From the NCBI RefSeq assembly GCF_044628455.1, contig NZ_JBIYZW010000001.1, positions 370,947 through 434,946 on the forward strand: a stretch of DNA of 64,000 nt. The letters run 5' to 3'. The DNA comes from Hymenobacter sp. B81. GTDB lineage: Bacteria; Bacteroidota; Bacteroidia; Cytophagales; Hymenobacteraceae. This document shows, one piece after another, positions 32,668 to 50,923 of the stretch (the first letter of the stretch is position 1; every line of letters starts with the position of its first letter). The notes beneath the pieces were generated by a model. That model saw only the letters and a program-made list of their open reading frames with translations, was not told the origin of the DNA and did not search any database. The translations under genes were made by a program, and so were the position numbers.

Positions 32668-33084
32668 TTACCAGAAGCCGACGTACTCGATGAGGGCGTA
32701 GACGATGATGCCGGCGCCGAGCAGCAGGAACAGATAAAGCATGAAATCGGAGCCGGGGGCCATGATGGTGAAGGTGGTGGGGTCGGCGGGGAGGTAGCGC
32801 AGTCGCACGGTTTCGCCTTCGTGGTGGCTGGCGGGGTTGGTGCCCTGGTGGTAGCGGGCGGTTATCCACTCCTGCTGCGTCGTCAGGAAGCGCACGACGG
32901 GGACGTACACGGTGCTTCTGCGGCTGGTTTGTTCTTCCAGGCGAATGACGGTGCCGGTGGTTTCGGTGCCGTGGCGGCGGATGTGGGCGGCTTTGCGCAG
33001 CATCAGGATGGCCCCGATGAGAAAGAAGCCGCCGAAGACGACGAGCTGAATCAGGCGCTCATCGGCCGCGTCGAGGGTGGGCAT
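32668..33084 (-). CDS. DUF3592-like small membrane protein (TM, beta domain, TM), array member 1
   Basis: N-terminal TM, central beta-rich domain (TGTVIRLEEQ...VYVPVVRFLT...GETVRLRYLPADP), C-terminal TM. Confidence 0.55.
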   Translation of the reverse strand: MPTLDAADERLIQLVVFGGFFLIGAILMLRKAAHIRRHGTETTGTVIRLEEQTSRRSTVYVPVVRFLTTQQEWITARYHQGTNPASHHEGETVRLRYLPADPTTFTIMAPGSDFMLYLFLLLGAGIIVYALIEYVGFW

Positions 33085-33128: not shown

Positions 33129-33509
33129 TTAGAAAACAAGGCGCCAGAGCGCGTATAGAACCAGCCAGCCCCCGCCTATGGTGAGGCCATAGAACCCTAG
33201 CGGGGAACCTTCGCCGATGGCGTAGTGGCTGGGTACAGCGGGGTCGTAGAGGATGGGTACCTCGTCGCCGACGGTGTAGGCGCTGTGGTATACCAGGTCG
33301 GTAATTTTCTGCTGGGTACGGGTGGTGAAGCGGATGGTGGCCAGGCGGTCGTCTCCCTGGCCTTGTATAGCCACAACGGTGCCGCGGGTACGCTCGCCGT
33401 ATTCGACGAGTCGGGTGTAGCGGCGGCGGCTCAGCTGCCCTGCGGCCACCAGGGTTACGCCCAGTAGAAGCAGTAAAGCGGCGTCGGCGGTGGGGGAGAC
33501 AAGGGGCAT
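33129..33509 (-). CDS. DUF3592-like small membrane protein, array member 2
   Basis: Same architecture (RGTVVAIQGQG...TIRFTT...GDEVPILYDP...C-terminal TM). Confidence 0.55.
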   Translation of the reverse strand: MPLVSPTADAALLLLLGVTLVAAGQLSRRRYTRLVEYGERTRGTVVAIQGQGDDRLATIRFTTRTQQKITDLVYHSAYTVGDEVPILYDPAVPSHYAIGEGSPLGFYGLTIGGGWLVLYALWRLVF

Positions 33510-33520
33510 GGGGATGTGCT

Positions 33521-33588
33521 AGGACTTAAGCGCCTCTCGAATCCCATTAAGGGTGTCGGCAATGGCTTCGAGTTTGATGAGCAATTAG
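33521..33588 (-). pseudogene. Orphan 3'-terminal fragment (21 codons, bounded by in-frame stops) homologous to the C-terminus of the giant gene 34030..38994, low GC
   Basis: Minus-strand translation LLIKLEAIADTLNGIREALKS* aligns with the giant-protein C-terminus VLTRLEAIAGGLSGIREALKQE* (14/21 identical). Codon usage is AT-rich, unlike the native copy. Confidence 0.6.
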
Positions 33589-33613
33589 TTGGTGCCAAAG
33601 CTGCGGAGGGTAT

Positions 33614-34015
33614 CTAAGGGAGATATTTCCATACGGCGTATACCAGTCCGCTAATTCCGAAGACTACAAGCATCCAGTCGCCGAAGCTTAGTCCCTGCCC
33701 ATCGATACTCACGCTGTTTGAGTCGGACAGATCAAAACGCACTGTGACTTCGTCGCCTTCTTTATAGCGGTCAGTAGTAATGCCAAAGCTGGAGCGGACT
33801 GTTATCAATTCCTGCTGAGCATTCTGGAAACGAATCACTGGATAAAAAGCCGGGGACTTACCTGCTTCGTAGTCAATCCAAATTACTGTGCCGGCCGCCG
33901 TTACGCCGGTTCGTTGTAGTCGAAATTTTTGACGCACTCTATACAGGGAAACCAGTGTGATAATCATACTTGGAACCGCTACAAGAATGAAACCTACGAT
34001 ATCAATACCCTCCAT
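33614..34015 (-). CDS. DUF3592-like small membrane protein, array member 3; low-GC (~47%) cassette
   Basis: TM-beta-TM architecture (TAAGTVIWIDYEAG...PVIRFQN...GDEVTVRFDL...C-terminal TM). Strongly AT-shifted codon usage versus the ~68% GC background. Lies 14 nt downstream of the giant-gene stop. Confidence 0.6.
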   Translation of the reverse strand: MEGIDIVGFILVAVPSMIITLVSLYRVRQKFRLQRTGVTAAGTVIWIDYEAGKSPAFYPVIRFQNAQQELITVRSSFGITTDRYKEGDEVTVRFDLSDSNSVSIDGQGLSFGDWMLVVFGISGLVYAVWKYLP

Positions 34016-34029
34016 AACTTATGTATTGT

Positions 34030-37000
34030 CTATTCCTGCTTTAGTGCCTCCCGGATGCCGCTGAGGCCGCCCGCAATGGCCTCCAGCCTGGTGAGCACCT
34101 GCAGCACCTGGCCGGTCTGGGAGTTGCGCAGGTTTTCCTGGTAGGTGTGCTTGATCTGCTGCCAGCGCTGCTGCTGCTCGGGGGTGAGCCAGCCGAGCAG
34201 CTCGCGCAGCTTGAGCAGGTTGGCTTCGGTGGCGCTGGTCAGGGTTTGGGCTTCGCTCTCGTAGTGGGCGGCCAGTAGCTGCTCGATTTCCTGCTCGTTC
34301 ATGACGGGGCGCACTTTCTCGGCCAGCTTGTTCATGTTGCGGTAGGAGCCCTGGAGCTTGAACGGCGGCTCGGTGCGGTAGGCGTCGGCCTGGGCGGCCG
34401 AGGCAATGTAGGCGGCGTTGACGCGGGCCACCACGTCGCGCAGGCGCAGCAGCTTCTGCAGCACGGCCACGTACTCGCTCAGCTCCTCGGGGGCGTGGTT
34501 GCCCTCGAAGGAGAGGCCGTCGGCCTGGTTGGTTTCGGCGAGGCGAATGAGGGTGGGCACGTCCTGCGGGGCCTGGCCGGCGAGGCGGGCCAGGGCGGCG
34601 TTGCTGGTGAGGGCGTTTTCGAGGTAGGAGAGGCGGAAGGCGTCTTCGGAGCCGGCCGTGAGAATGTCGCCGAGGTTGTAGATGTCGGCGCGGTTGGCCA
34701 GCATGTCGGGCAGCTTGAACACGTCGCCGGTTTCGGTGTAGGGGTTGCCGGCCATCACCACGCACACCTTGCGGCCGCGGAAGTCGTAGGTGCGGGCGCG
34801 GCCCTGGTACACGCCCTCAATCTTGCGCTGGGCGTCGCAGAGCGAGATAAACTTCTGCAGAAACTCGGGGTGGCAGTGCTGGATGTCGTCGACGTAAATC
34901 ATCACGTTGTCGCCCATCTCGAAGGCCAGGTTGAGCTTCTCCAGCTCCTGCCGCGCCCCGGCGTTGGGCGCCTGCGCCGGGTCGACGCTGGTGACGGCGT
35001 GGCCGATGGCCGGGCCGTTGATTTTCATGAAGATGAGGCCGAGGCGGTTGGCCACGTACTCCAGCAGGGTGGTCTTGCCGTAGCCCGGCGGCGAGATGAG
35101 CAGCAGCAGGCCCATGAGGTCGGTGCGCTTGCCTTCCCCGGCCGTGCCGATCTGCTTGGCCAGGTTGGCGCCGATGAGGGGCAGATACACCTGGTCGATG
35201 AGCTGGTTGCGCACGAAGGAGGTGAGCACGCGCGGGCGGAAATCGGCTAGGCGCATGTGCTCGGCGGCCTGGGTTAGCAGCTGCTTTTTCAGCTCGGCAA
35301 ACTGCTCGAACTGGGGCAGCGTGTGCTGGGCAAAGTGATGCAGGCGGCGGCGGAAGTGGGGAAAGTTGAGCTCGTAACTCGTTTTTTGTTTTTCGTTGCT
35401 CGTGACCAGACGCGGGTGGCTGCCGCGCATGTCGGGCAGCACTTCCGTGAGCGGGGTGCGAATGACGCGCTCGGGGGCATAGCTGCGGGAGGCGAGCAGG
35501 GCGGCAGTTTCGTCGCAAAATGCAGCCCAGACCGGGTGGCCGGCCTGCTGCAGGAAGGCCCGCAGCCACTGGCGAATCAGCTGGTACTGGGCGGCAGGCT
35601 GCTGGGCCAGGGCCGCTACCGACGCCTCGAAGGTGTCGGCGGCGCGGCGCTCTTTCAGGTGCTTCAGGAAAGCTTCGGAGAGGTCGGCGGCTTCGGCGGA
35701 AGTGGTGAAGGCGGGGGCCTCACCCCCCGGCCCCCTCTCCGAGGGAGAGGGGGAGCCAGACGACTGCTGAATTAGCTCGTGCAGCAGGTATTCGCCGGCT
35801 TCGGCAACTTCTTCGGGCGTGAACAGGCTGGTTTCCTGCGCGAACTGCTCAATGGCGGTTTGCAGCTCGGCGGTGAGCTTGCCGGTTTCGCGGGCGTCGG
35901 GGAAGACCTGTAGCAGCAGCGCCAGGCCCTGAATCTGGTGCTGCCAGTGGGCTTGCCGGTCGGCGGGGGCGAAGCGGTGCCAGTAGAGGTTGGCGGCGGC
36001 GCGGGTTTCGGTGGGGTAGCGCAGCAGGCCGGTGGCGCGGGTGAGGCGCACCAGGGCCGCGAGAATGAGGGCCGCGTCGTGGTCGTGCACGCCTTTGAGG
36101 TAGCCCTCGGCGTAGCGCGGGGCCATGTGCTGCTGCACGTAGGCCAGCAGGTCGGCGGGGCTCAGGCGTTCCAGCTCGGCTACCGACAGCGTGGCGGGGC
36201 GGCCTTCGGCGGCGGGCTGGGGGTGCTGGGCGGCGGTGAGCAGCTGGTAGGCCAGAAACTCGGCGCGGTACACGTCGTGGTTCTCGGAGGGCAGCGTCTG
36301 CTCCCACACCGGGCGGGCCTGCTCCACGGCGGCGTCCTCTACGGCGCGGTAGAAGTTGGTGCCGGTGAGGTGGTAGTGCAGCTGTCCGTCGCGCAGCACC
36401 AGCGTCAGCTCCAGCGGCTGGGTGTTCACGGTGAAGGTGTGCGGGCCGAAGCGCACGCCCTGGCCGCCGTCCACGAACAGGTCGGCGCGGTCCTTGAGCT
36501 GGCGCACGGCGTCTTCACGCACGGTTTTCAGGCGCGACTGGAGGTCGTCGGCCTTCACCGCGTCGCCCAACGCCAGCAGCTCGTCCACGGTGCGGCGCAC
36601 TTTCTCCACCATCACGTCGGCGGCGAAGTAGCCGTTGATGTCGGCCACCGCGGTGAGCTTGCTCACGCGATTCTGCACGGCTTTCAGCATGCGCTCGGCC
36701 GACTGTAGCAGGGCCGAGGCGCGCTGGTTGCGGGCGGCCACCAGGCTCTGCTTGCGGGCCTCGAAGGCTTCGTAGGCTTCCTCGCGGCGGGTGGCCAGCT
36801 GGCTCAGGAATTGGTCGAACTCGGGAAACTTGCCTTCCAGCTCCTCCAGTTGCACCATCAGGCGCGAGAGGTACTCGTCGCACTTGGCGGGCGTGTCGGA
36901 GAGGTCGAGGTAGTTCACCAGGGCCTGCTCCAGCAGCTTGAGTTGGGCGGCAAACTCGGCCTGGGCCTCGGTGCCGGCCAGGGCCTGGCGGCGGCGCTTG

Positions 37001-38994
37001 AGGGCGGCCCGCAGCTGGTTGAAGCCGGCGTAGATGCCCGAAATGTTGTCGATGATGCGCGTGGTCTGCGTCGGGTCGGCAATGGGCAGGTTGCCCACCA
37101 CTTCGATGAGCAATTCCAGCTCGGCGGCTACAGCATTCAGCTCCTGTTCGAGCTTGTTGGCTTCCGTCACCGTGGGCAGCTGCTCGATGCCCGCGCCCAG
37201 GGCCTGCACCCGCGCGGCGTAGGGCGTGAGGGCGTCATCGCGCAGCAGGAAGTCCACCGTGCGCTGGGCCACTTCCTGGCTCAAGCCCTGCAGCTCCCCG
37301 GCGGCTTTTTCCACGGCGGCCGCATCCACGTAGCGCAGCTCCTTCAGGGAAATGACTTCGCCGCGTACCTGGCGCAGGTCCGAGAGCTGCTGCACGTATT
37401 GCTGCACCTCGGTGGCGTCGGCGGTGCGCTTGATCAGGTCGCGCAGCTCGGCGGCGCGGCCCAGCACCTGCTGGGTGGTTTCCTGGGTGCTGCGGCGGAT
37501 GCGCTGCACCTTGTCGAACTCCTCCACGGCCGAGGTTGCGGCCTGCCGGATATCCTGCAGGGGCTCCGCGAGCTTTTCGGCGCCGGGCTCGGCCAGCCAG
37601 TGGTAGGAGTCCGATAGGGTAGTGGTGCGCCGGATCAGGTCGAGGTAGAGACCGGTGTAGGAGTCGTCCTTGCCGATGAGCGTGAGCACCTCCTGCGCCT
37701 CGGCCATGGCCCGCACAATTTCCTTGTTGCCGAGCTTGCCCAGGTAGCCGTCCTGCACCGCCGGCAGCTGAAAGTCGGGCGCGGTGTAGGGCGTCTGCCA
37801 GATCTGCACGGTGTGGTGCTTTTTGGGCTCCTCGTCGGCGCGGAAGTAGCACAGCTCGCCGTTTTCGAACAGGGCGTAGCCGTGGCAGACGATGGGCGCG
37901 GCCACCTTCTGGCTGATGAGATTGTAGCTCAGCAGCAAATACAGGCCGTTGTCCTTCTGGAAGAACACGTACAGAAAATCCTCGCCGTTGGGCGAGGCCA
38001 CGCGCTTCTCGAACACCAGCTCCTGGGGCACCTGCTCGAACTGCTTGCCGTCGCCGGTTTGCAGGTAGTAGCCGTGGGGAAAGATCAGGCCGTGGCCGTC
38101 GGGCAGCAGCACGCAGGCGTCGGCCAGCGCGTCGAGGCGCTGGGCCTGGCGCAGCTTGGTGTTGTAGAGGAAGTAGCGGAAGCCGGACTCCTGGTAGGGC
38201 CGGATTTTGAGCAAGACCAGCTGGCCGACCACCGCGTAGTGGATTTCGGCGTCGTCGAGGGTCTGGTCCTTGTTGTCGACGGGCTCGGAGTAAATACCCT
38301 GCCCGGTCTTGGTATTGTCTTCGACTTTGATGGTTAAATCCCCGCCCACCGTCTCCACGAACACCTTGTCTTCGATGCTGATGTGCGGGTGCTTGCCGGC
38401 CCGGTGCATGTCGCGGGTGGCGCGCTTCCACTGGAACTCGTGCTGGGGCGGGAAGGTGTACTCGTGGTCGGAGCGGTTGTCGAGATACACCAACGACTGG
38501 CCCTGCACCAGCCACTTAAAAGTCTTGATGTCGTTGGCCGTCTTGCCCACCCGGAACACCATGAACAGGTGCTCCCCGCGCTGGGCAAACTTGACGAAGC
38601 GCGTCTTCTTGTAGTACTTGTAGAGGTTGCGCAGCTCCTCCAGGAAGGCCTTGTCCTCGATCAGCGCCAAGCCCAGGGGCCGAAACTCCGGCCGCTGGTA
38701 CTGGTACACCCCGAACACGTCCTGCAAATCGACCTCGGTTTTGAGGCCCAGCAGCACGTTGTAGCCGAACAGGAACTTGTCGCCCAGCGCCACCATGTCC
38801 ATGGGCACGCAGTTGTGCTCGGTGGTGAGGCGCCCGGTACCCAGCAGCTGCCAGTCCAGGGCCCCAAACACCTGCTTGCGGGCGGTGTTGAGCTTGTCCA
38901 GCCGCACGCGCAGCTCCGAGCCGCCCTTGCTGAGGCGGTTGCGCAGGATTTCGTAGGTGCCGGTTTCAAGTTGAGGAGCGGCGGTAGTTTCCAT
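34030..38994 (-). CDS. Giant (1,654 aa) protein with C-terminal MoxR-like AAA+ ATPase module; N-terminal ~1,100 aa of unknown beta and coiled-coil regions
   Basis: Uninterrupted 4.96 kb ORF. C-terminal Walker A LISPPGYGKTTLLEYVANRLGL, Walker B VMIYVDDIQHC, sensor-like CVVMAGNPYTETGDVFKLPDMLANRADIYNL, colinear with MoxR/AAA_3-5 ATPases. Long predicted coiled-coil middle region. Carries a 36-nt in-frame palindromic element (SPSPSERGPGGE). Confidence 0.85.
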   Translation of the reverse strand: METTAAPQLETGTYEILRNRLSKGGSELRVRLDKLNTARKQVFGALDWQLLGTGRLTTEHNCVPMDMVALGDKFLFGYNVLLGLKTEVDLQDVFGVYQYQRPEFRPLGLALIEDKAFLEELRNLYKYYKKTRFVKFAQRGEHLFMVFRVGKTANDIKTFKWLVQGQSLVYLDNRSDHEYTFPPQHEFQWKRATRDMHRAGKHPHISIEDKVFVETVGGDLTIKVEDNTKTGQGIYSEPVDNKDQTLDDAEIHYAVVGQLVLLKIRPYQESGFRYFLYNTKLRQAQRLDALADACVLLPDGHGLIFPHGYYLQTGDGKQFEQVPQELVFEKRVASPNGEDFLYVFFQKDNGLYLLLSYNLISQKVAAPIVCHGYALFENGELCYFRADEEPKKHHTVQIWQTPYTAPDFQLPAVQDGYLGKLGNKEIVRAMAEAQEVLTLIGKDDSYTGLYLDLIRRTTTLSDSYHWLAEPGAEKLAEPLQDIRQAATSAVEEFDKVQRIRRSTQETTQQVLGRAAELRDLIKRTADATEVQQYVQQLSDLRQVRGEVISLKELRYVDAAAVEKAAGELQGLSQEVAQRTVDFLLRDDALTPYAARVQALGAGIEQLPTVTEANKLEQELNAVAAELELLIEVVGNLPIADPTQTTRIIDNISGIYAGFNQLRAALKRRRQALAGTEAQAEFAAQLKLLEQALVNYLDLSDTPAKCDEYLSRLMVQLEELEGKFPEFDQFLSQLATRREEAYEAFEARKQSLVAARNQRASALLQSAERMLKAVQNRVSKLTAVADINGYFAADVMVEKVRRTVDELLALGDAVKADDLQSRLKTVREDAVRQLKDRADLFVDGGQGVRFGPHTFTVNTQPLELTLVLRDGQLHYHLTGTNFYRAVEDAAVEQARPVWEQTLPSENHDVYRAEFLAYQLLTAAQHPQPAAEGRPATLSVAELERLSPADLLAYVQQHMAPRYAEGYLKGVHDHDAALILAALVRLTRATGLLRYPTETRAAANLYWHRFAPADRQAHWQHQIQGLALLLQVFPDARETGKLTAELQTAIEQFAQETSLFTPEEVAEAGEYLLHELIQQSSGSPSPSERGPGGEAPAFTTSAEAADLSEAFLKHLKERRAADTFEASVAALAQQPAAQYQLIRQWLRAFLQQAGHPVWAAFCDETAALLASRSYAPERVIRTPLTEVLPDMRGSHPRLVTSNEKQKTSYELNFPHFRRRLHHFAQHTLPQFEQFAELKKQLLTQAAEHMRLADFRPRVLTSFVRNQLIDQVYLPLIGANLAKQIGTAGEGKRTDLMGLLLLISPPGYGKTTLLEYVANRLGLIFMKINGPAIGHAVTSVDPAQAPNAGARQELEKLNLAFEMGDNVMIYVDDIQHCHPEFLQKFISLCDAQRKIEGVYQGRARTYDFRGRKVCVVMAGNPYTETGDVFKLPDMLANRADIYNLGDILTAGSEDAFRLSYLENALTSNAALARLAGQAPQDVPTLIRLAETNQADGLSFEGNHAPEELSEYVAVLQKLLRLRDVVARVNAAYIASAAQADAYRTEPPFKLQGSYRNMNKLAEKVRPVMNEQEIEQLLAAHYESEAQTLTSATEANLLKLRELLGWLTPEQQQRWQQIKHTYQENLRNSQTGQVLQVLTRLEAIAGGLSGIREALKQE
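35717..35757. repeat. Palindromic element copy 1 (GGCCCCCTCTCC-N4-GGAGAGGGGGAGCC), in-frame within the giant CDS
   Basis: Hairpin-forming inverted repeat, near-identical to copies at 39465 and 63876. Confidence 0.7.
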
Positions 38995-39037: not shown

Positions 39038-39403
39038 TTAGTCGTTGCGCTGCAGGCTGGCTTTCAACAGTGCCTGCGCTGGGTCGGCTTTGGCGTACAC
39101 GACGGCCGTGGTGTCGCCCTTCCGGTGGCCTCGCATGAAAGCACGGCTGGTGCGGGCGCGCAGCGTGTAGTCCTGCCCGCCCACGCGGTACCGAATCGTA
39201 ACGCGCCGGCTCTTGATGGTTCGCCGCCGGGTGATGATGCCCGTGGCAACGCCCGGGTTTTTCAAGATGAACGCCCGCTTTTGCCGGGTTTCCTGCCTGA
39301 CCTTGTACACAATGCCCACGCACAGGGCAATGGCCAGCACGATTCCCAAGAGCAGAGCCGCTACTTGCTTGCGGTTGGTAGATGTGGCGTTTAGGGTCGT
39401 CAC
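39038..39403 (-). CDS. Small N-terminally anchored membrane protein, DUF3592-like beta domain, no C-terminal TM
   Basis: GTG start; TM (AALLLGIVLAIALCVGIVY) then GVATGIITRRRT...VTIRYRVGGQDYTL...GDTTAVVYAKADP. Sits between flotillin and the giant gene. Confidence 0.45.
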   Translation of the reverse strand: MTTLNATSTNRKQVAALLLGIVLAIALCVGIVYKVRQETRQKRAFILKNPGVATGIITRRRTIKSRRVTIRYRVGGQDYTLRARTSRAFMRGHRKGDTTAVVYAKADPAQALLKASLQRND

Positions 39404-39508: not shown

Positions 39509-41674
39509 TTAGTTGAGCGTACTCACCATCTTATCCGAGAGGCCCAGCATCTTGGCCGTGCCGGCCAGCTGGGTAATGGTGTTGCGCGTGGCGTCGTCGC
39601 CGGCCTTGTTCATCATTTGCAGCAGCAGGGCCGAGATGCTCAGGTTCTTCACGTCATCGGAACTGAGGCCGAACTGGTTTACGAACTTGGTGATGTTGGT
39701 TTTGAAGTCGCCGCCGTTGCCATCGAGCGGGAAAAAGGTGTCCTTCACTGTGGTCAGCACCTGGGAGTTGCCCACGGCGCGGTCGATGCTCTTGCCCTTG
39801 GTAATCGAGCCGATGATCTGGTCGAAGAACATGGTCTCGCCGCCCACGATGTCGATTTTGGCGGCTTTCAGCGCCTCGGCAATAACGCCCGACTGCGCGG
39901 CCGCAATGTCCTTCTGGATGCTGATTTCGGCCAGCTCCACGGCCTGGTCCTTGGCCAGGCGCAGCTTGAACTCCTCGTGCTCCTTGCCCACGCCGTCGAG
40001 CTTCTTCATGGCGTCGGCCTTGGCTTCGATGCCCTTGGCTTCCACCGCAAACTTCTCCTCGCTCACGCGCACTTCGGCCAGGCCCTTCTTCTGCTCGGCG
40101 TCGGCCATGGCGTCGATGACGTCCACGTCGACCATGGCCTTCTCGCGGTTGACCTTGGCGGCCACGATGCCGATTTTCTCGTCGGCTTCGGCCTGGGCGG
40201 CGGCTTTGGCCTGAATGGCCTGGGCCTCGGCCGAGGCGGTGAGCTGGAGCACGGTGGCCTCGGTTTCGCCTTCCTTCTGGCGGGCTACGGCCTTGGCCTG
40301 CATCACCTGCGCTTCGGCCAGGCCCACGGCAGTGGCTTTGCTGGCTTCGGCTTCGGCCAGGGTGCGAATGGCCTGGGCCTTGAACTCAGCCGAGGCTTTC
40401 TCGGCTTCGGCGTCGATAAGGGCCTGCTTGGCGCGGAACTCGGCGGCCTGCTTGGCCATGTCGGCTTCGCCCACCAGGCTCACCGTAGCAGCTTCGGCCT
40501 GCTGCTTGGCGGCCGTAATGGCTACCAGCTTGTCACGCTCGGCCTGGGCCTGGGCGCGGGTGTCCTTGATCTTTTCCTCTTCCTGCACGGTGGCCTTCTC
40601 CACCGCAATTCGCTCCCGGATGATGGCCTGGATGTTTTTGCGCTCCTCCTCCACGGCCTTTTCCTTCTCGATCTGGGCCAGGGCCACAATTCGCTCCCGC
40701 TCGTTGGCTTCCAGGGCCTGGGCCTGCGCCACGCGCTCGGTTTCCACCGCGTCGGTGCGCTGCTTGTTGCGCTCGGCCACCAGCACCTGCCGGTCGCGGT
40801 TCTGCTCGGCCACGCGCACTTCCTCCTCGGTGGTCAGGCGGGCGCGCTCCGATTTCAGGGTTTCTTCCTGCTGCACCTTGGCAATTTCGGCCGACTCGCG
40901 GGCCTTGATGCTGGCAATTTCGCGGCGCTGCTTTTCCTGGTTTTCGGTGAGCTGCTTTTCCAGCTGCAGGATGGTTTCCTGCGCTTCCACGTCCTGCTTC
41001 TTGATGGTCTTCTGGGTTTCCCGCTCGATGGCGTTGGCCTGAATCTTCTGCTCCGAGGTCAGGGCAATGATTTTCTTGATGCCCTCCGCGTCCAGGATGT
41101 TGTCGTGGTTCAGGGCCGACAGCGGTGTCTGCTCCAGGTAGTCGATGGCGCAGTCGTCGAGCACGTAGCCGTTCAGGTCGGTGCCGATGATGCGCAGGAT
41201 TTCCTGCTTGAATTGCTCGCGCGAGTTGTAGAGCTCGATGAAGTCAAACTGCTTGCCCACGGTCTTGAGGGCCTCCGAGAACTTGGCGTCGAAGAGGTTT
41301 TCCAGTGCGGCCGGGTCGGAGGCGCGACGGGCGCCGATGCTCTGGGCCACCTGCACCACGTCCTCGGCCGTTTTGTTGACGCGCACGAAGAAGTTCACCT
41401 TCACGTCGGCCCGCAGGTTGTCTTTGCACACGAGGCCTTCCTTGCCGGCGCGCTGAATGATGATGGTTTTCAGGGTGATGTCCATCACCTCGAGCTTGTG
41501 CAGCACGGGAATGACGAAGATGCCGGAAAACGACACGCGGGAGTCGCCCAGGCCGGTGCGCACCAGGGCTTCGCCCTGCACGGCCTTCTGGTACATCTTC
41601 ACCACAATGGCGACGATGCCCAGCAAAAACAGGCCGACTATAGCCAGCACTGCCAGGGATAATTGTTCAAGCAT
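39509..41674 (-). CDS. Flotillin-family (SPFH/band 7) protein with long EA-rich coiled-coil region (YqiK/FloT-like)
   Basis: N-terminal TM, SPFH domain (VRTGLGDSRVSFSGIFVIPVLHKLEVMDITLKTI...), ~350 aa of E/A/K/Q-rich heptads, conserved flotillin C-terminal region. ATG (MLEQLSL) at 41672-41674. Confidence 0.9.
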   Translation of the reverse strand: MLEQLSLAVLAIVGLFLLGIVAIVVKMYQKAVQGEALVRTGLGDSRVSFSGIFVIPVLHKLEVMDITLKTIIIQRAGKEGLVCKDNLRADVKVNFFVRVNKTAEDVVQVAQSIGARRASDPAALENLFDAKFSEALKTVGKQFDFIELYNSREQFKQEILRIIGTDLNGYVLDDCAIDYLEQTPLSALNHDNILDAEGIKKIIALTSEQKIQANAIERETQKTIKKQDVEAQETILQLEKQLTENQEKQRREIASIKARESAEIAKVQQEETLKSERARLTTEEEVRVAEQNRDRQVLVAERNKQRTDAVETERVAQAQALEANERERIVALAQIEKEKAVEEERKNIQAIIRERIAVEKATVQEEEKIKDTRAQAQAERDKLVAITAAKQQAEAATVSLVGEADMAKQAAEFRAKQALIDAEAEKASAEFKAQAIRTLAEAEASKATAVGLAEAQVMQAKAVARQKEGETEATVLQLTASAEAQAIQAKAAAQAEADEKIGIVAAKVNREKAMVDVDVIDAMADAEQKKGLAEVRVSEEKFAVEAKGIEAKADAMKKLDGVGKEHEEFKLRLAKDQAVELAEISIQKDIAAAQSGVIAEALKAAKIDIVGGETMFFDQIIGSITKGKSIDRAVGNSQVLTTVKDTFFPLDGNGGDFKTNITKFVNQFGLSSDDVKNLSISALLLQMMNKAGDDATRNTITQLAGTAKMLGLSDKMVSTLN

Positions 41675-41726
41675 GTAAGTAAGGAGTAGAGTTGGGTCGG
41701 GAGGAAAGTGAAAAGCAAGTGGCAAA

Positions 41727-41948: not shown

Positions 41949-42596
41949 TCAGCGGGCATCGTAGGGCTCGATCAGGTAGCAGCGGCGCGCGGCGTCGTAG
42001 TCGATGACCAGGGCCGTGTCGCCCTTGCGCAGCTCGCCGGAGGCCGCGCGCACATTGAGGGTGAGGGCGGCGCCCTCGGCCCGGATGCTGGCCTGGCCCA
42101 GGTGCTGGCGCGAAGTGGGCAGCAGCACGGTGCATACTTTGCCCACGGGGTTGAGGCTGCCGGCCTGGTCTTTTTCCAGGCTGGCAAACAGCTTCACGAA
42201 GGGCAGGGTAAGCACCTTGGCCACCAGCAGGCTGCCGATGAACAGCGGCACGGCCAGCACCAGCCCCAGCAGCAGCGAGTGGTTGCCGAGGTAGTAGTTG
42301 ACGAGGATGCTGCCCACCCACAGCGGCAGGGCCACGAAGCTCAGAAACACCATCAGCGGCACGCGACCCAGGTTGAAGAAGGCCAGCGCGTTGTTGATCC
42401 AGTCGACGCCCATGTGGGCGTGGTGCGGGCCGTGCGCGTCGGGACCCAGGTCGGCGTCGGGGCTCACGTGCAGGTCCAGGGTTTTGAAGTCGAGCAGGCC
42501 GACCATCACCGTGAGCCAGTAGAGCAGCACGAAAATGAGCAGGCCCGTGGCCAGCAGGTTGGGCGGGGAGGCCGCCGCGTGTAGCAATTCAGTCAT
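41949..42596 (-). CDS. YqiJ/DUF1449-family inner-membrane protein with C-terminal NfeD-like OB fold (flotillin partner)
   Basis: Multiple N-terminal TMs; C-terminal GKVCTVLLPTSRQHLGQASIRAEGAALTLNVRAASGELRKGDTALVID beta-barrel-like segment; directly upstream of flotillin as in E. coli yqiJK. Confidence 0.65.
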   Translation of the reverse strand: MTELLHAAASPPNLLATGLLIFVLLYWLTVMVGLLDFKTLDLHVSPDADLGPDAHGPHHAHMGVDWINNALAFFNLGRVPLMVFLSFVALPLWVGSILVNYYLGNHSLLLGLVLAVPLFIGSLLVAKVLTLPFVKLFASLEKDQAGSLNPVGKVCTVLLPTSRQHLGQASIRAEGAALTLNVRAASGELRKGDTALVIDYDAARRCYLIEPYDAR

Positions 42597-42673: not shown

Positions 42674-43387
42674 TTAGGCTGGGGGCGTGTTGAGGCCCAG
42701 CTTCTGCTTGAGGGCCTGCAGGTCGGCCGCGGCCTGGCCGCCCCCGGCCTGCAGCGCCCGGTCGATTTCCTGGTCGAGGCTTTTCTTTTCCTGGGCAATT
42801 TCGCCGTACGACTCGGCCAGGGCTTCTTCCACGGCTACTTTTTCCTTCATGCGCTCCAGCAAAGCCACCGTCCCCGACGAGTCGAGCTGGGCCAGCTGCT
42901 TGTTGATGGTTTTGGTGGCGGTGCTCACCGTCACGCGGGCCTTGAGGGTTTTTAGCTCGTTTTCCCACTGGCCGATGGTCTGGCGCAGGGTCTGCACGTT
43001 CTGGTCGAGCTGCTGCGCCGACTGCTCGAAGCGCTGCTGGTCGGCGGTGGCGCGGGTGGCGTGGGCTTCGTGCTCGGCCTTTTTACCCAGGGCTTCCCCG
43101 GCCAGACGGTCGGCTTCGGCAGTTGCCAGGTCTCCCTTGTGGGCGCGCTGCAGCAGCAGCACCGCTTTGTTTTCGTAGTCGAGGGCCTTGCTGCGGGAGC
43201 CCTCGGCCTCGTTGCGCGCCCGAATGCCCATGGCCTTCACCTCGGCCAGGGCCTGCAGGCTTTTGTCGAGGTCCTGGCGCAGGTCGCGCAGGGCCTGCTC
43301 GGTCATTTTGATGGGGTCTTCGAGCTGGTCGATGGCGGAGTGCGACTCGGCCTGGCCGATTTTGAAAAGACGGGCGAAGAGGTTCAT
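42674..43387 (-). CDS. pspA: PspA/IM30 (phage shock protein A / Vipp1) family protein
   Basis: MNLFARLFKIGQAESHSAIDQLEDPIKMTEQALRDLRQDL... canonical PspA N-terminus and coiled-coil body (237 aa). Confidence 0.9.
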   Translation of the reverse strand: MNLFARLFKIGQAESHSAIDQLEDPIKMTEQALRDLRQDLDKSLQALAEVKAMGIRARNEAEGSRSKALDYENKAVLLLQRAHKGDLATAEADRLAGEALGKKAEHEAHATRATADQQRFEQSAQQLDQNVQTLRQTIGQWENELKTLKARVTVSTATKTINKQLAQLDSSGTVALLERMKEKVAVEEALAESYGEIAQEKKSLDQEIDRALQAGGGQAAADLQALKQKLGLNTPPA

Positions 43388-43486: not shown

Positions 43487-43924
43487 CTAAGCCCTCGAAA
43501 AAGCTATCAGCTCCTCCGAAAACTCGCTGAGCAGCAAACTCAGGGAATTCAGCACGGCCTCCAGCTCCGAGAGGTCGAGGGTATCGATCTGCAGCGTGTC
43601 GCGGAAGATGACCTTGCGGCCGGAATCGTCGAGGGCGAAGGCGCCGTGGATGATGTCGCGGTTCTTCTGCAGCAGGCGCTGGTACACCTCGCACGAGGGA
43701 GCCGGCAGCTCCAGGAGGTACTGCTCCAAGATCAGGAGCGGCTCGCCGCAGCCCAGCACCAGGTTGCGGATGCCCTGCGCAGGGTGGTCGACGACCAGAA
43801 TGCCGTCCGATTCGTCGGCGTGGCGGATGTCGAAGCCCAGCGTGAGCAGGTGGCGGTGAATAGTGGCAAAGTAAGGGTTGGTCATAGGCAGGGTGCGGTG
43901 GGTAGGGTTATGAGCATGGCTCAA
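43487..43924 (-). CDS. Hypothetical protein (possibly YbjN-like), first gene of the psp/flotillin cluster
   Basis: 145-aa ORF, no TM; loose resemblance to YbjN-type putative sensory regulators only. Confidence 0.45.
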   Translation of the reverse strand: MSHAHNPTHRTLPMTNPYFATIHRHLLTLGFDIRHADESDGILVVDHPAQGIRNLVLGCGEPLLILEQYLLELPAPSCEVYQRLLQKNRDIIHGAFALDDSGRKVIFRDTLQIDTLDLSELEAVLNSLSLLLSEFSEELIAFSRA

Positions 43925-44002
43925 ATAACTGGCGTTGGGAATGCGGGTTCTGAGGTGGTTGTCGTAGCTTTACGCTGCAAGAATACTGAAAGTTTTGGCT
44001 AT

Positions 44003-44017
44003 GCTCAAAGTTTGAGC
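44003..44017. promoter_or_regulatory. Perfect 15-bp palindrome GCTCAAAGTTTGAGC (nested in TTTACGCT...AGCGTAAA inverted repeat): candidate operator in divergent promoter region
   Basis: Located 20 nt upstream of the XRE regulator ATG (44037), in the 112-bp gap to the divergent psp/flotillin cluster. Confidence 0.5.
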
Positions 44018-44036
44018 GTAAAAATTTTTCGGCGTA

Positions 44037-44816
44037 ATGTCCTACATCGGCAACAATATCCGCAAGATACGCACGGTTAAGAAGCTGAGCCAGGCGGCTT
44101 TTGCGGAGCTTTTCGGGCTGGCCCGGCCCAGCGTGGGTGCCTATGAAGAAGGGCGCTCCGAGCCCAAAATGGAGACCTTGATTCAGATTGCTCATCATTT
44201 TGGCTTGTCGGTAGACCTGCTACTGACGAAAGAATTGACCGTAAACGACCTCTACGGCTTCGATATCTTTCAGCAGGACATCCAGGCCGGGCCGGTAACC
44301 GATGCCGTGGCCGAGGCCGACAAGCTCAGCCAGGTAACGCCCTGGGTGAAGGCCGACCGCGTGCTGGAGTACATCGTGCACTACCACGATAAGGCGTTCG
44401 TGGACGCCCTGCCGGCCCTGACGCTGCCCCACGCGTTGGGTGCCGCCACGCGGGCCTTCGAGATTCAGGGAGCCGAAATGCAGCACCAGCAACAGGGCCT
44501 GCGCCACCAGGACGTGGTGCTCTGCCGCCGCGTCGACCGCGCCGCGCCGCTGCTGCGCCCCGGCCGCATCTACGCCTTCGTTACGGCCAGCCGCCTGCTG
44601 GTGCGCCGGCTGGTAGAGCGCCTGCCCGACGAAAAGCTCAAGCTGCGCGCCGACAACCCCGACTACGGCACGCTGGAATTTGCCCTCGACCAGGCCCTGG
44701 AAATTTGGGAAGTGAAAGCCGTGTTTACCACCCACCTGCGCCCGCCCTCGGCCCTGGAAGAGCGCGTGAGCCGGCTGGAGCAGCAGCTAGAGGAGCTGCT
44801 GGGGCGGCTGGAATAA
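44037..44816 (+). CDS. XRE-family HTH regulator with S24/LexA-like C-terminal domain
   Basis: N-terminal HTH (IRKIRTVKKLSQAAFAELFGLARPSVGAYEEGRSEP); C-terminal CI/LexA-like fold where the usual Ser-Lys dyad is not obviously conserved (GAEM in place of GDSM). Confidence 0.7.
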   Translation: MSYIGNNIRKIRTVKKLSQAAFAELFGLARPSVGAYEEGRSEPKMETLIQIAHHFGLSVDLLLTKELTVNDLYGFDIFQQDIQAGPVTDAVAEADKLSQVTPWVKADRVLEYIVHYHDKAFVDALPALTLPHALGAATRAFEIQGAEMQHQQQGLRHQDVVLCRRVDRAAPLLRPGRIYAFVTASRLLVRRLVERLPDEKLKLRADNPDYGTLEFALDQALEIWEVKAVFTTHLRPPSALEERVSRLEQQLEELLGRLE

Positions 44817-45468: not shown

Positions 45469-45888
45469 CTATTCGTCCAGACGCTCGAAGACGGGTAAAT
45501 AGCCCAGCACCTGCAAGGCGCCGATGCCCAGGAAGAGCAGGCCGATCAGCAGCAGGAACCCGGTGCCGGCCGGCCGGGCATCAGCCAGATCCACGTTTTC
45601 GGGGTCGAGCGGGTCGTATACCACCGCTATTTCCTGGCCCACGGCGTAGCGGCCCGCCTCGGCCGCCGACTCGGTTTCGGCTTCCACCGTGCGCCCGGCG
45701 GGCGTGGTAAAACGCACCCGGGGCGTAAGCAGCCGGCGCGCGGGCGTCAGCCCGATGAGCAGGGCCGCGGCCACGACGCCCCGCCGCTGCCGGGCACGCT
45801 GGTTGCGGCGGCCCAGCCCGGCCGCGGCCGTGAAGAACGCGCCCATTACCAGAAAGATGATGGCTTCGGCGGGAAAGATCAGGGGCAT
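45469..45888 (-). CDS. DUF3592-like small membrane protein (unlinked paralog), divergent from TetR
   Basis: TM, beta domain (VRFTTPAGRTVEAETESAAEAGRYAVGQEIAVVYDPLDPENV), TM. Confidence 0.5.
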   Translation of the reverse strand: MPLIFPAEAIIFLVMGAFFTAAAGLGRRNQRARQRRGVVAAALLIGLTPARRLLTPRVRFTTPAGRTVEAETESAAEAGRYAVGQEIAVVYDPLDPENVDLADARPAGTGFLLLIGLLFLGIGALQVLGYLPVFERLDE

Positions 45889-50064: not shown

Positions 50065-50433
50065 TCGTTGTTGGGCTGGCGAAATGCAGAGTTGCTTCAA
50101 TGCGCAAAGCAAGTAGAAACGGTGGCTTAATACTAATTGCAATTCAAGCGTGATAGGTAATTAGGCCGGCGGGTTGCCGCCCCAGGGTATTGAATAAACC
50201 AGGGTGAAAAATATTTTAAAAAACTCCTGAAAATATTTGGTTGGTGAAAAATAACCTTTCTACCTTTGACCCGTTCAAAGCCCCAAACCTACACGACCCA
50301 ACGACTTCATTCGTCATGCGCCGCCACTTCAACCAATATCTCGGTATGCCATCCAGCCTGGAGGATAAGATCCAGCCGGGGTTCGGCGCGCACGCAACGG
50401 AGTGAAGCTCTTTCGATAGAAGCTCAACTTGCA

Positions 50434-50472
50434 AAACGCCCGAATCCTACCAGATTCGGGCGTTTTGTTTTT
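50434..50472 (+). terminator. Rho-independent terminator-like hairpin (AAACGCCCGAATC-ctacca-GATTCGGGCGTTT + TTTTGTTTTT) with no annotated upstream gene
   Basis: 13-bp perfect stem plus U-tract on + strand; lies in the 780-nt AT-rich noncoding interval 50143..50923. Confidence 0.6.
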
Positions 50473-50923
50473 CACTTGCTTGCTAACTCGTTTACCGCCA
50501 TGATGCCGAACCGCCAATCCCAGCCTAGCCTTGCTGCCCGCTTAGCGGTGCCCGCGCTGCGGTGGCGGAGCGACAACAGGCCAGCCAGCTGCCCCAATAC
50601 CCCGCCGCGAAAACGCAGCTGCTAACGGCACTAGCTACCCGGGCCGATGGCTGTTCCTCAGACCTGATTCACGGTAATTAATTCCTGGATTTGCGACTAC
50701 ATAATTGTCGCCTGGGAAAATATTGCCCGAATTATTCCTGCAATAAATACCTGCGCAACCGCAATTAATCACGCATTAATTGTTGGCCAGAATTCCACAC
50801 CCTTTTGCCAGACACCACCATGTACGAATCGTTCAGACTTCTGCTTCAACCAGCCGCTCCCGCGGCCCCCTTTATGTCTGATTCTTCAATCGGTAATAGC
50901 CCCCGCGCGGGGCACCCCGACCG

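Follow-up and report, generated by a model that had tools for sequence, protein, structure and literature searches.

A small gene of unusual base composition sits directly behind the stop codon of a long AAA+ ATPase gene in Hymenobacter sp. B81, and a damaged second copy of the 3' end of that ATPase gene follows it. The region lies in a 64,000-nucleotide (nt) stretch of the genome, referred to here as the window. The small gene belongs to the DUF3592 family (DUF3592 #3), the ATPase gene, called the giant gene below, is the last conserved gene of a PspA operon, and the second copy of its 3' end is referred to as the orphan. We favor, with moderate confidence, the interpretation that the small gene was acquired horizontally as a single-gene cassette, within a homology-anchored hotspot that starts at the stop codon of the giant gene. 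Unless stated otherwise, the features described below are on the minus strand, so coordinates fall in the direction of transcription.

The segment at 33521-34029 has a GC content of 0.473, compared to a mean of 0.668 for the 64 kb (standard deviation 0.041, using 509-nt windows), and it is the GC minimum among all 509-nt stretches. A cumulative-GC walk places the edges of the low-GC region at 33513 and 34045. Recalculation thus agrees with an initial annotation of this DNA, which had described a low-GC segment here (47.3% versus 66.8% GC). The left edge of the cassette is a 14-nt spacer, read from the sequence, between the giant gene stop and the cassette ATG (34016..34029); the cassette gene itself occupies 33614..34015 and encodes 133 amino acids (aa); and the right edge is the orphan (33519..33614). 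Two further DUF3592 genes follow: #2 (33129..33509), whose ATG begins 9 nt past the stop of the orphan and which is an older, partly ameliorated paralogue (Pfam E 2.9e-4), and #1 (32668..33084), the oldest and fully ameliorated paralogue (Pfam E 3.5e-8, above the cut-off). GC content at third codon positions (GC3) climbs with distance from the giant gene stop, from 0.48 in #3 to 0.75 in #2 and 0.87 in #1. With a GC3 of 0.48 against 0.90 in the giant gene, the cassette is compositionally foreign, as had been proposed. In a scan for promoters and terminators, the interval from the giant gene to the DUF3592 genes had no convincing terminator.

The cassette gene is intact and appears to be functional in the sense that its sequence is constrained. 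It is 100% identical to a protein of Hymenobacter sp. B81 that NCBI annotates as "DUF3592 domain-containing protein". The Pfam model PF12158 scores it just below the gathering cut-off (E 3.4e-4, 21.6 bits, cut-off 25.3), and the identification of a full DUF3592 gene is instead sustained by orthologues at 85% and 76% identity that carry PF12158, by a profile search that connects it to nine other PF12158 proteins, by a local family hidden Markov model (E 1.7e-44), and by the fold of an AlphaFold2 model. In that model, a five-stranded beta domain resembling an oligonucleotide/oligosaccharide-binding (OB) fold is flanked by two transmembrane helices. A cluster of Arg and Lys residues after the first helix suggests that the OB domain would face the cytoplasm. 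The ratio of nonsynonymous to synonymous divergence is 0.14-0.24, indicating purifying rather than diversifying selection.

The codons of the orphan at 33522-33584 read LLIKLEAIADTLNGIREALKS, ending in a TAG stop at 33519-33521, with an upstream in-frame TAA at 33585-33587. The initial annotation had reported a 21-codon fragment between in-frame stops; the fragment exists, although the coordinates given for it (33526..33588) are about 4 nt off. Compared to the native tail, VLTRLEAIAGGLSGIREALK, 14 of 20 residues and 42 of 59 nt (71%) are the same, and an independent repeat search pairs 33525-33583 with 34039-34097. The similarity runs on 5' across the TAA to ~33614, where PLDTLRSFGTN*LLI---KLEAIADTLNGIREALKS in the orphan is matched by QENLRNSQTGQVLQVLTRLEAIAGGLSGIREALKQE in the giant protein. 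The orphan is therefore longer than first noted, at about 96 nt or ~32 codons with a 9-nt deletion, and it abuts or overlaps the stop codon of DUF3592 #3. It aligns to the working, native-type copy of the repeated 3' end at 34030..34137, which comprises the last ~35 codons of the giant gene and its stop. Could such a short match be a coincidence? When the C-terminal 36 aa of the native protein were compared to all six frames of the window, with the native copy masked, the best match fell exactly at the orphan with a score of 62, and 300 shuffled queries all scored lower (mean 41.2, standard deviation 3.8, maximum 58). The fragment is thus a match to the C-terminus of the giant protein, as claimed, and not a generic chance similarity.

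The same arrangement is present in a second species. In H. luteus, an orthologous orphan (LDSLRNSGAGQLLRMLDKPEGIADRLCGVRGVLKNK*) directly follows the cassette gene, and the H. luteus and B81 orphans have the same left junction and three shared derived changes. The two genomes are colinear from -1199 to +439 relative to the giant gene stop and unrelated past the orphan, such that spacer, gene and orphan are common to both. With both the cassette and an orthologous orphan present in H. luteus/latericoloratus, this is not an acquisition private to B81 and recent there, and the suggestion that the cassette travels with an orphan 3' fragment holds. The nearest homologues of DUF3592 #3, at 85% identity in H. 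luteus/latericoloratus and 76% identity in a Hymenobacter from a Joint Genome Institute (JGI) metagenome, both sit 13-14 nt past the stop of the orthologous giant gene. In all three hosts the cassette gene is AT-rich, with a GC3 of 0.48-0.56 compared to 0.84-0.90 for the giant gene. The synonymous divergence (dS) of the cassette gene is 0.31 between B81 and H. luteus and 0.70-0.90 between these and another Hymenobacter locus, L004. For the giant gene, H. luteus groups with L004 (dS 0.32-0.41) and B81 groups with H. koreensis. Judged from these sequence divergences, the discordant histories of cassette and host gene support lateral movement among Hymenobacter lineages.

Where did the cassette come from? 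The initial annotation had attributed the orphan to the giant-gene homologue of a lower-GC donor, an origin that is not borne out. The orphan is of the Hymenobacter clade-1 type, the 5' half of the H. luteus orphan is GC-rich and 85% identical to the native end, with a 25-nt perfect run, and the AT shift of the B81 orphan fits what would be expected of pseudogene decay: by our own count from the alignment, 11 changes relative to the working copy are GC-to-AT and one is the reverse. The proximate donor of the orphan was probably another Hymenobacter, of the H. luteus-clade type, rather than a low-GC genome. The proposed search for lower-GC donor genomes was similarly unproductive. Among 5.8 billion protein sequences, identities of at least 76% were found only for the B81 protein and two Hymenobacter orthologues, meaning that the cassette gene has no relatives at that level outside three Hymenobacter lineages. 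The only additions from a profile search were distant DUF3592 proteins. Two scans each of metagenome and viral sequences contained no relatives of the cassette gene, and a search of phage DNA returned nothing. A plasmid search returned only a giant-gene homologue on a plasmid of Hymenobacter sp. DG25B, with no DUF3592 gene behind it.

Orphan 3' ends are not peculiar to B81 and H. luteus. We retrieved 80 loci around giant-gene homologues, from about 40 Hymenobacter species and from Pontibacter, Rufibacter and others, and searched the downstream regions by tblastn with giant-protein C-terminal tails. Fifteen orphan 3' ends came to light, distributed over 12 lineages, or 12 of 82 Hymenobacteraceae loci, and every one lies on the strand of the giant gene; the best opposite-strand matches reach an E-value of only 0.004. 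This recurrence of orphan 3' ends at the site is among the points that support the initial annotation. All the orphans extend to about the stop codon, with the exception of one internal fragment (-249 to -73, L014b), and their left edges lie at -65, -96, -101, -104 to -108, -115, -122, -143 and -249. A DUF3592 gene immediately precedes nine orphans, and the spacing from each orphan stop to the next DUF3592 ATG is roughly 0-20 nt. The orphans differ in age, from 91% nt and 97% aa identity to the working copy of the same locus in Hymenobacter sp. H14-R3 (L040) to 71% nt identity in B81. They simply repeat the conserved tail, broken by stops and indels, and none has an alternative domain. Orthologous orphans in L015 (+1075..+1214 from the giant gene stop) and L004 (+3881..+4018) lie directly after a PNPOx gene; PNPOx, which is backbone-like in other species, is therefore also part of a displaced or inserted module.

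The clearest example of accretion is in Pontibacter amylolyticus (L051). From +1524 onward, this locus is colinear with its uninterrupted relative L059 from -65 to +6367. A 1.5-kb module encoding DinB and a WYL regulator, together with a new gene end, lies ahead of the old end, and the L051 orphan includes the terminator hairpin too. The same module is found further out in L053, behind another insertion. From the layout of these three loci it follows that modules stack, with the newest nearest the gene, and the GC3 gradient of the three downstream DUF3592 genes in B81 fits the same order of age.

The contents of the site vary widely. Of 25 clade-1 Hymenobacter loci, 14 have a DUF3592 gene that starts 3-112 nt past the giant gene stop; the gap is 112 nt in L013 and 3-15 nt in the other 13. 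No DUF3592 gene was detected in that position at 15 clade-2 Hymenobacter loci or at ~42 loci of other genera, and in two other phyla the genes behind the giant gene are different ones, with nothing similar among them. Hence, the giant-gene 3' end and DUF3592 are not the conserved unit that had been envisaged. In other Hymenobacter, defence-type genes of 30-40% GC occupy the slot directly behind the stop (L040:10484-12850, L017:9233-11034, L022:9235-10521, L023:9206-12367 and L043:9253-11034). Cargo with nSTAND3 and Mrr_cat domains matches the PADLOC model PDC-S73 (E 1.7e-152), and cargo with DUF3226 and AAA_15/21 domains matches PDC-M38A/B. Other cargo includes Schlafen/AlbA_2, NACHT, HATPase_c_3 with SduA_C, and RusA with an AHJR-like nuclease. 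The site is a hotspot for candidate defence genes and accessory genes, not a DUF3592-specific slot. Defence-island hotspots between core genes are a known kind of site, and the PDC-S73 and PDC-M38 candidates and the NACHT, Schlafen/AlbA_2 and Shedu-C-like genes (30-40% GC) in the slot of other Hymenobacter fit that description. The DUF3592 cargo of B81 differs in that it matches no PADLOC model.

The position of the insertions is as well defined as their contents are variable. Mean pairwise nt identity across the 25 clade-1 loci is 88-96% over the AAA+ region, 81-84% at -177 to -57, 72% over the last 57 nt, and 12% right after the stop. A crossover had been proposed to run through a short, conserved 3' end. 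In fact, the last 57 nt are the least conserved part of the gene end (72% versus 88-96%), and it is the AAA+ region that provides a 1-kb anchor of high identity across the genus.

One way to explain such precision would be site-specific integration, with the 3' end serving as attB for a tyrosine or serine recombinase, an incoming element that brings a replacement 3' end, and orphans that are attR scars. Islands driven by an integrase, which use the 3' ends of tRNA or protein genes, typically show direct repeats made from the gene 3' end and grow in tandem at a single site. Both properties are found at this locus, where the target 3' end recurs as direct repeats, and the stop codon marks exactly where insertions begin. 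However, no integrase was found. No recombinase recurs among 112 large open reading frames (ORFs) within 6 kb at 40 Hymenobacter loci, as judged from the top 25 of 117 Pfam families, such that singletons are possible; an integrase/transposase motif screen was negative, and none of 10 scanned cargo proteins was an integrase or transposase. The left edges of the repeats vary from -65 to -249 with no common core, and the cassettes are very small, at only ~0.5 kb and one gene, with no inverted-repeat or attC-like structure and no tRNA. Neither Rfam nor tRNA scans gave a match in the window, which thus has no tRNA-type attachment site. We consider site-specific integration highly unlikely. The sole inverted repeat found (16 nt, 81%) flanks the cassette gene and is absent in H. 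luteus, and we attribute a 9-nt inverted repeat on either side of the gene to chance, since it, too, is absent there. An integron cassette was also considered and rejected, with neither an attC inverted-repeat site nor an integrase present; a search for attC-like structures or IntI found none.

How, then, might the cassette have been placed behind the giant gene? We infer a route based on homology. Incoming DNA that includes a copy of the ATPase 3' end would pair with the chromosomal gene, and RecA-type recombination would set the cargo behind the stop codon. This could occur by a Campbell-type single crossover of a circularised molecule consisting of cargo plus 3' fragment, or by a double crossover that involves the working end and an orphan copy already in place, which would give the same product. 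Founding events may have involved homology-facilitated illegitimate recombination. In each case the 3' end would be duplicated, with one copy keeping the ATPase gene whole and the other becoming a non-coding orphan that decays and is shifted downstream with older cargo. For B81, the crossover would have fallen in the last ~50 nt, leaving a native working end and an orphan that appears to be of the donor, H. luteus-clade type. Indeed, up to about -50 the working end of B81 belongs to the native, H. koreensis-like type (NSQTGQVLQVLTR...), and its last codons (KQE*) are closer to KRE*, the luteus type, than to the KPGA* of H. koreensis. The B81 orphan has luteus-clade states at four of eight diagnostic sites (a GGC-NCC block, CTCGAA and ATTGCC) and B81-type states at two. 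The layout therefore fits a crossover through the 3' end, as the initial annotation had suggested, with a koreensis-like working end and an orphan that leans to the luteus clade.

The same layout could arise with the opposite polarity, as in classical displacement by homology-facilitated illegitimate recombination. The working end would then have arrived with DUF3592 #3, and the orphan would be the old resident end, 9 nt before #2. This is how the displacement model for the Vibrio cholerae type VI secretion system (T6SS) works (Kirchberger et al. 2017, PMC5361080). It would account for the gene-like spacing of 0-20 nt between orphan stops and the next DUF3592 gene, and for the Pontibacter orphan in L051, which is 91% identical to the working ends of relatives and 81% identical to its own. 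For B81, the reverse polarity is at odds with a working end that is koreensis-like, and hence native, down to about -50, with an orphan that leans to luteus-type states, and with the fact that the orphan is common to H. luteus and the gene behind it is not. We regard the reverse polarity as unlikely.

Tandem duplication in situ of the 3' end plus a DUF3592 gene, after which the copies diverged and the orphan decayed with an AT bias, would yield the same layout with no horizontal transfer at all. The predominance of GC-to-AT differences in the B81 orphan (11 versus 1) is what such decay predicts, and the orphans of L040, L010, L004 and L039 are closest to the working ends of their own loci. Nonetheless, #3 and #2 are only 26% identical, yet the repeat copies are 71% identical at the nt level, and GC3 differs between the two genes (0.48 versus 0.75). 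Duplication in place also fails to explain why cassette and orphan are shared with a relative that is not the nearest, at a dS below most of that of the host gene, and it cannot give heterogeneous cargo such as defence genes or DinB/WYL. We therefore give local duplication little probability. Across the orphans, 140 of 258 differences between working and orphan copies are at third codon positions, which is consistent with divergence as coding alleles, a pattern that is suggestive, not decisive.

Several observations weigh against horizontal acquisition by homologous recombination. At third positions, the share of differences (54%) exceeds only modestly the ~45% that we estimate for duplication in place where one copy stays under constraint. 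The left edges of several DUF3592-linked orphans nearly coincide (-104 to -108); this shared edge could be one ancestral junction spread by duplication or gene conversion, not repeated insertions. The count of donor-type diagnostic sites is small (four versus two of eight). No intermediate was observed, either as a circle or as an empty site in a sister strain of B81, and the junction sequences, taken by themselves, are ambiguous as to a circular intermediate or an illegitimate junction with microhomology. The donor searches named no low-GC donor.

There is a clear precedent for genes that accumulate displaced 3' ends. C-terminal displacement in Rhs genes was proposed to occur by homologous recombination of a circular intermediate consisting of a gene fragment plus cargo (Jackson et al. 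2009, PMC2935791), which is the same model as that considered here and makes the analogy to Rhs/CdiA genes in the initial annotation structurally apt. As in Rhs displacement, AT-richer displaced modules lie behind a conserved, GC-rich gene, and every module keeps a short piece of it. The B81 locus differs in that the anchor is a conserved AAA+ ATPase whose tail is not polymorphic and the orphan lacks an alternative C-terminal domain; what varies is a small gene in its own right, and the cargo is not limited to a single family. Sequential displacement has also been described for V. cholerae T6SS loci, where homology-facilitated illegitimate recombination was proposed (PMC5361080). There too, a conserved upstream anchor is adjoined by the newest module, with older genes and 3' remnants shifted downstream as small-gene arrays. 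The differences are that no effector/immunity relationship is apparent here and that the B81 orphan looks donor-derived rather than resident. Three hallmarks of displacement and accretion are present at the locus, namely a conserved anchor, co-oriented 3' duplicates at module borders, and the newest module nearest the anchor. The B81 feature is thus an example of a known process, that of Rhs and T6SS displacement, acting on a non-toxin gene.

Does the toxin logic itself apply? It would make the giant protein an effector and the DUF3592 proteins its cognate immunity or partner factors, piled up as orphan modules, as the initial annotation had raised. The layout does resemble Rhs/CdiA orphan arrays, the DUF3592 genes are diverse (25-55% identity) and stacked, with five within 13 kb, and a DUF3592 membrane protein occurs in the LXG-3 toxin loci of Streptococcus suis. 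Otherwise, DUF3592 is uncharacterised in the literature, apart from a mention as a predicted cofactor of mycobacterial MptB. The giant protein, however, has no toxin or secretion domain, its Pfam matches being DUF3686, DUF7902 and AAA. Its C-terminal tail is conserved across Bacteroidota, the orphans have no alternative tip, and most lineages lack a DUF3592 gene behind the giant gene. Selection on the cassette gene is purifying, and PADLOC returns no match for the operon or the DUF3592 genes. With an anchor that is the AAA+ ATPase of a PspA operon and a slot that holds other cargo, the immunity-like role finds no support, and we consider the toxin explanation extremely improbable.

The giant gene (34030..38994) encodes 1654 aa, with matches to DUF3686 (E 3.5e-193), DUF7902 (9e-29) and AAA (4e-6), and the last ~36 aa of the protein are conserved from Hymenobacter to other Bacteroidota. 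The operon upstream of it consists of PspA (42674-43387), a 215-aa protein with a weak YqiJ_N match (41949-42596), and a 738-aa coiled-coil protein (39509-41725). AAA+ ATPases in operons with PspA, CesT-Tir and flotillin have been described (Ravi et al. 2024, PMC11237479), and the B81 operon, with PspA, a weak YqiJ_N-like protein, a long coiled-coil protein and a beta-propeller/coiled-coil AAA+ ATPase, fits that description. That paper differs from the present case in reporting neither DUF3592 partners nor an insertion hotspot behind the ATPase gene. A full-length giant homologue is also present on the 169-kb plasmid or chromid of Hymenobacter sp. DG25B (L088, NZ_CP010056.1 132146-137047), where a convergent LytTR regulator comes next. 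The giant frame is broken in Hymenobacter sp. YC55 (L020) and in L027, with 361 and 1146 codons open back from the stop, respectively, and several Hymenobacter database entries for the giant protein are just 476-543 aa long; in some genomes, frameshifts, split genes or assembly errors may be the cause. Two other low-GC regions were seen in the window. One (<55% GC, 43740-44420) overlaps an ORF on the plus strand (44037-44816) that encodes a LexA/phage-repressor-like protein with HTH_3 and Peptidase_S24 domains and is divergent from PspA. The other, a ~0.8-kb stretch at ~50143-50923, has no convincing ORF, and Rfam (at gathering thresholds) and tRNA scans were negative there.

DUF3592 genes are not limited to the downstream side of the giant gene. 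A fourth family member (39038..39403; 121 aa, one transmembrane helix plus a beta domain; PF12158 E 5.9e-8, 33.7 bits; GC3 0.80) lies between the gene for the 738-aa protein and the giant gene. It is found only in B81 and five relatives (six loci); elsewhere, the slot is occupied by a DUF559 endonuclease-like gene or other genes, or is empty. The idea that this gene is a conserved operon member was rejected, given that it occurs at only six loci and the slot itself is variable. The operon thus has a second variable spot, in the slot just ahead of the giant gene. A fifth DUF3592 gene (45469-45888; 139 aa, Pfam E 1.2e-7, GC 0.70) lies ~2 kb upstream of PspA. All five DUF3592-family genes of the window fall within 13 kb around the operon, and this clustering hints at a functional link between DUF3592 and the operon. 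A bolder proposal is that DUF3592 proteins could be exchangeable, membrane-anchored OB-fold adaptors of a PspA/flotillin/AAA+ membrane-remodelling machine, co-transcribed and, given the short stop-to-start gaps, translationally coupled with the ATPase, that the orphans would be handles for swapping or stacking adaptors, and that the locus would be a diversifying envelope-defence system in which Rhs-like displacement exchanges the specificity module. We consider this distinctly unlikely. If true, it would explain both the five DUF3592 genes around the operon and the defence candidates in the same slot.

What are the broader consequences of an insertion site of this kind? First, scars of C-terminal displacement are not confined to polymorphic toxin genes. 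Second, any strongly conserved gene bordering dispensable DNA can anchor the repeated capture of foreign genes, with countable scars that record the order of arrival. Third, the locus draws attention to a clade-specific association of DUF3592 membrane proteins with a little-studied PspA/flotillin/AAA+ system. Fourth, Hymenobacteraceae have a precise hotspot for accessory and candidate defence genes behind the ATPase gene of the PspA operon, one that could be mined for new cargo.

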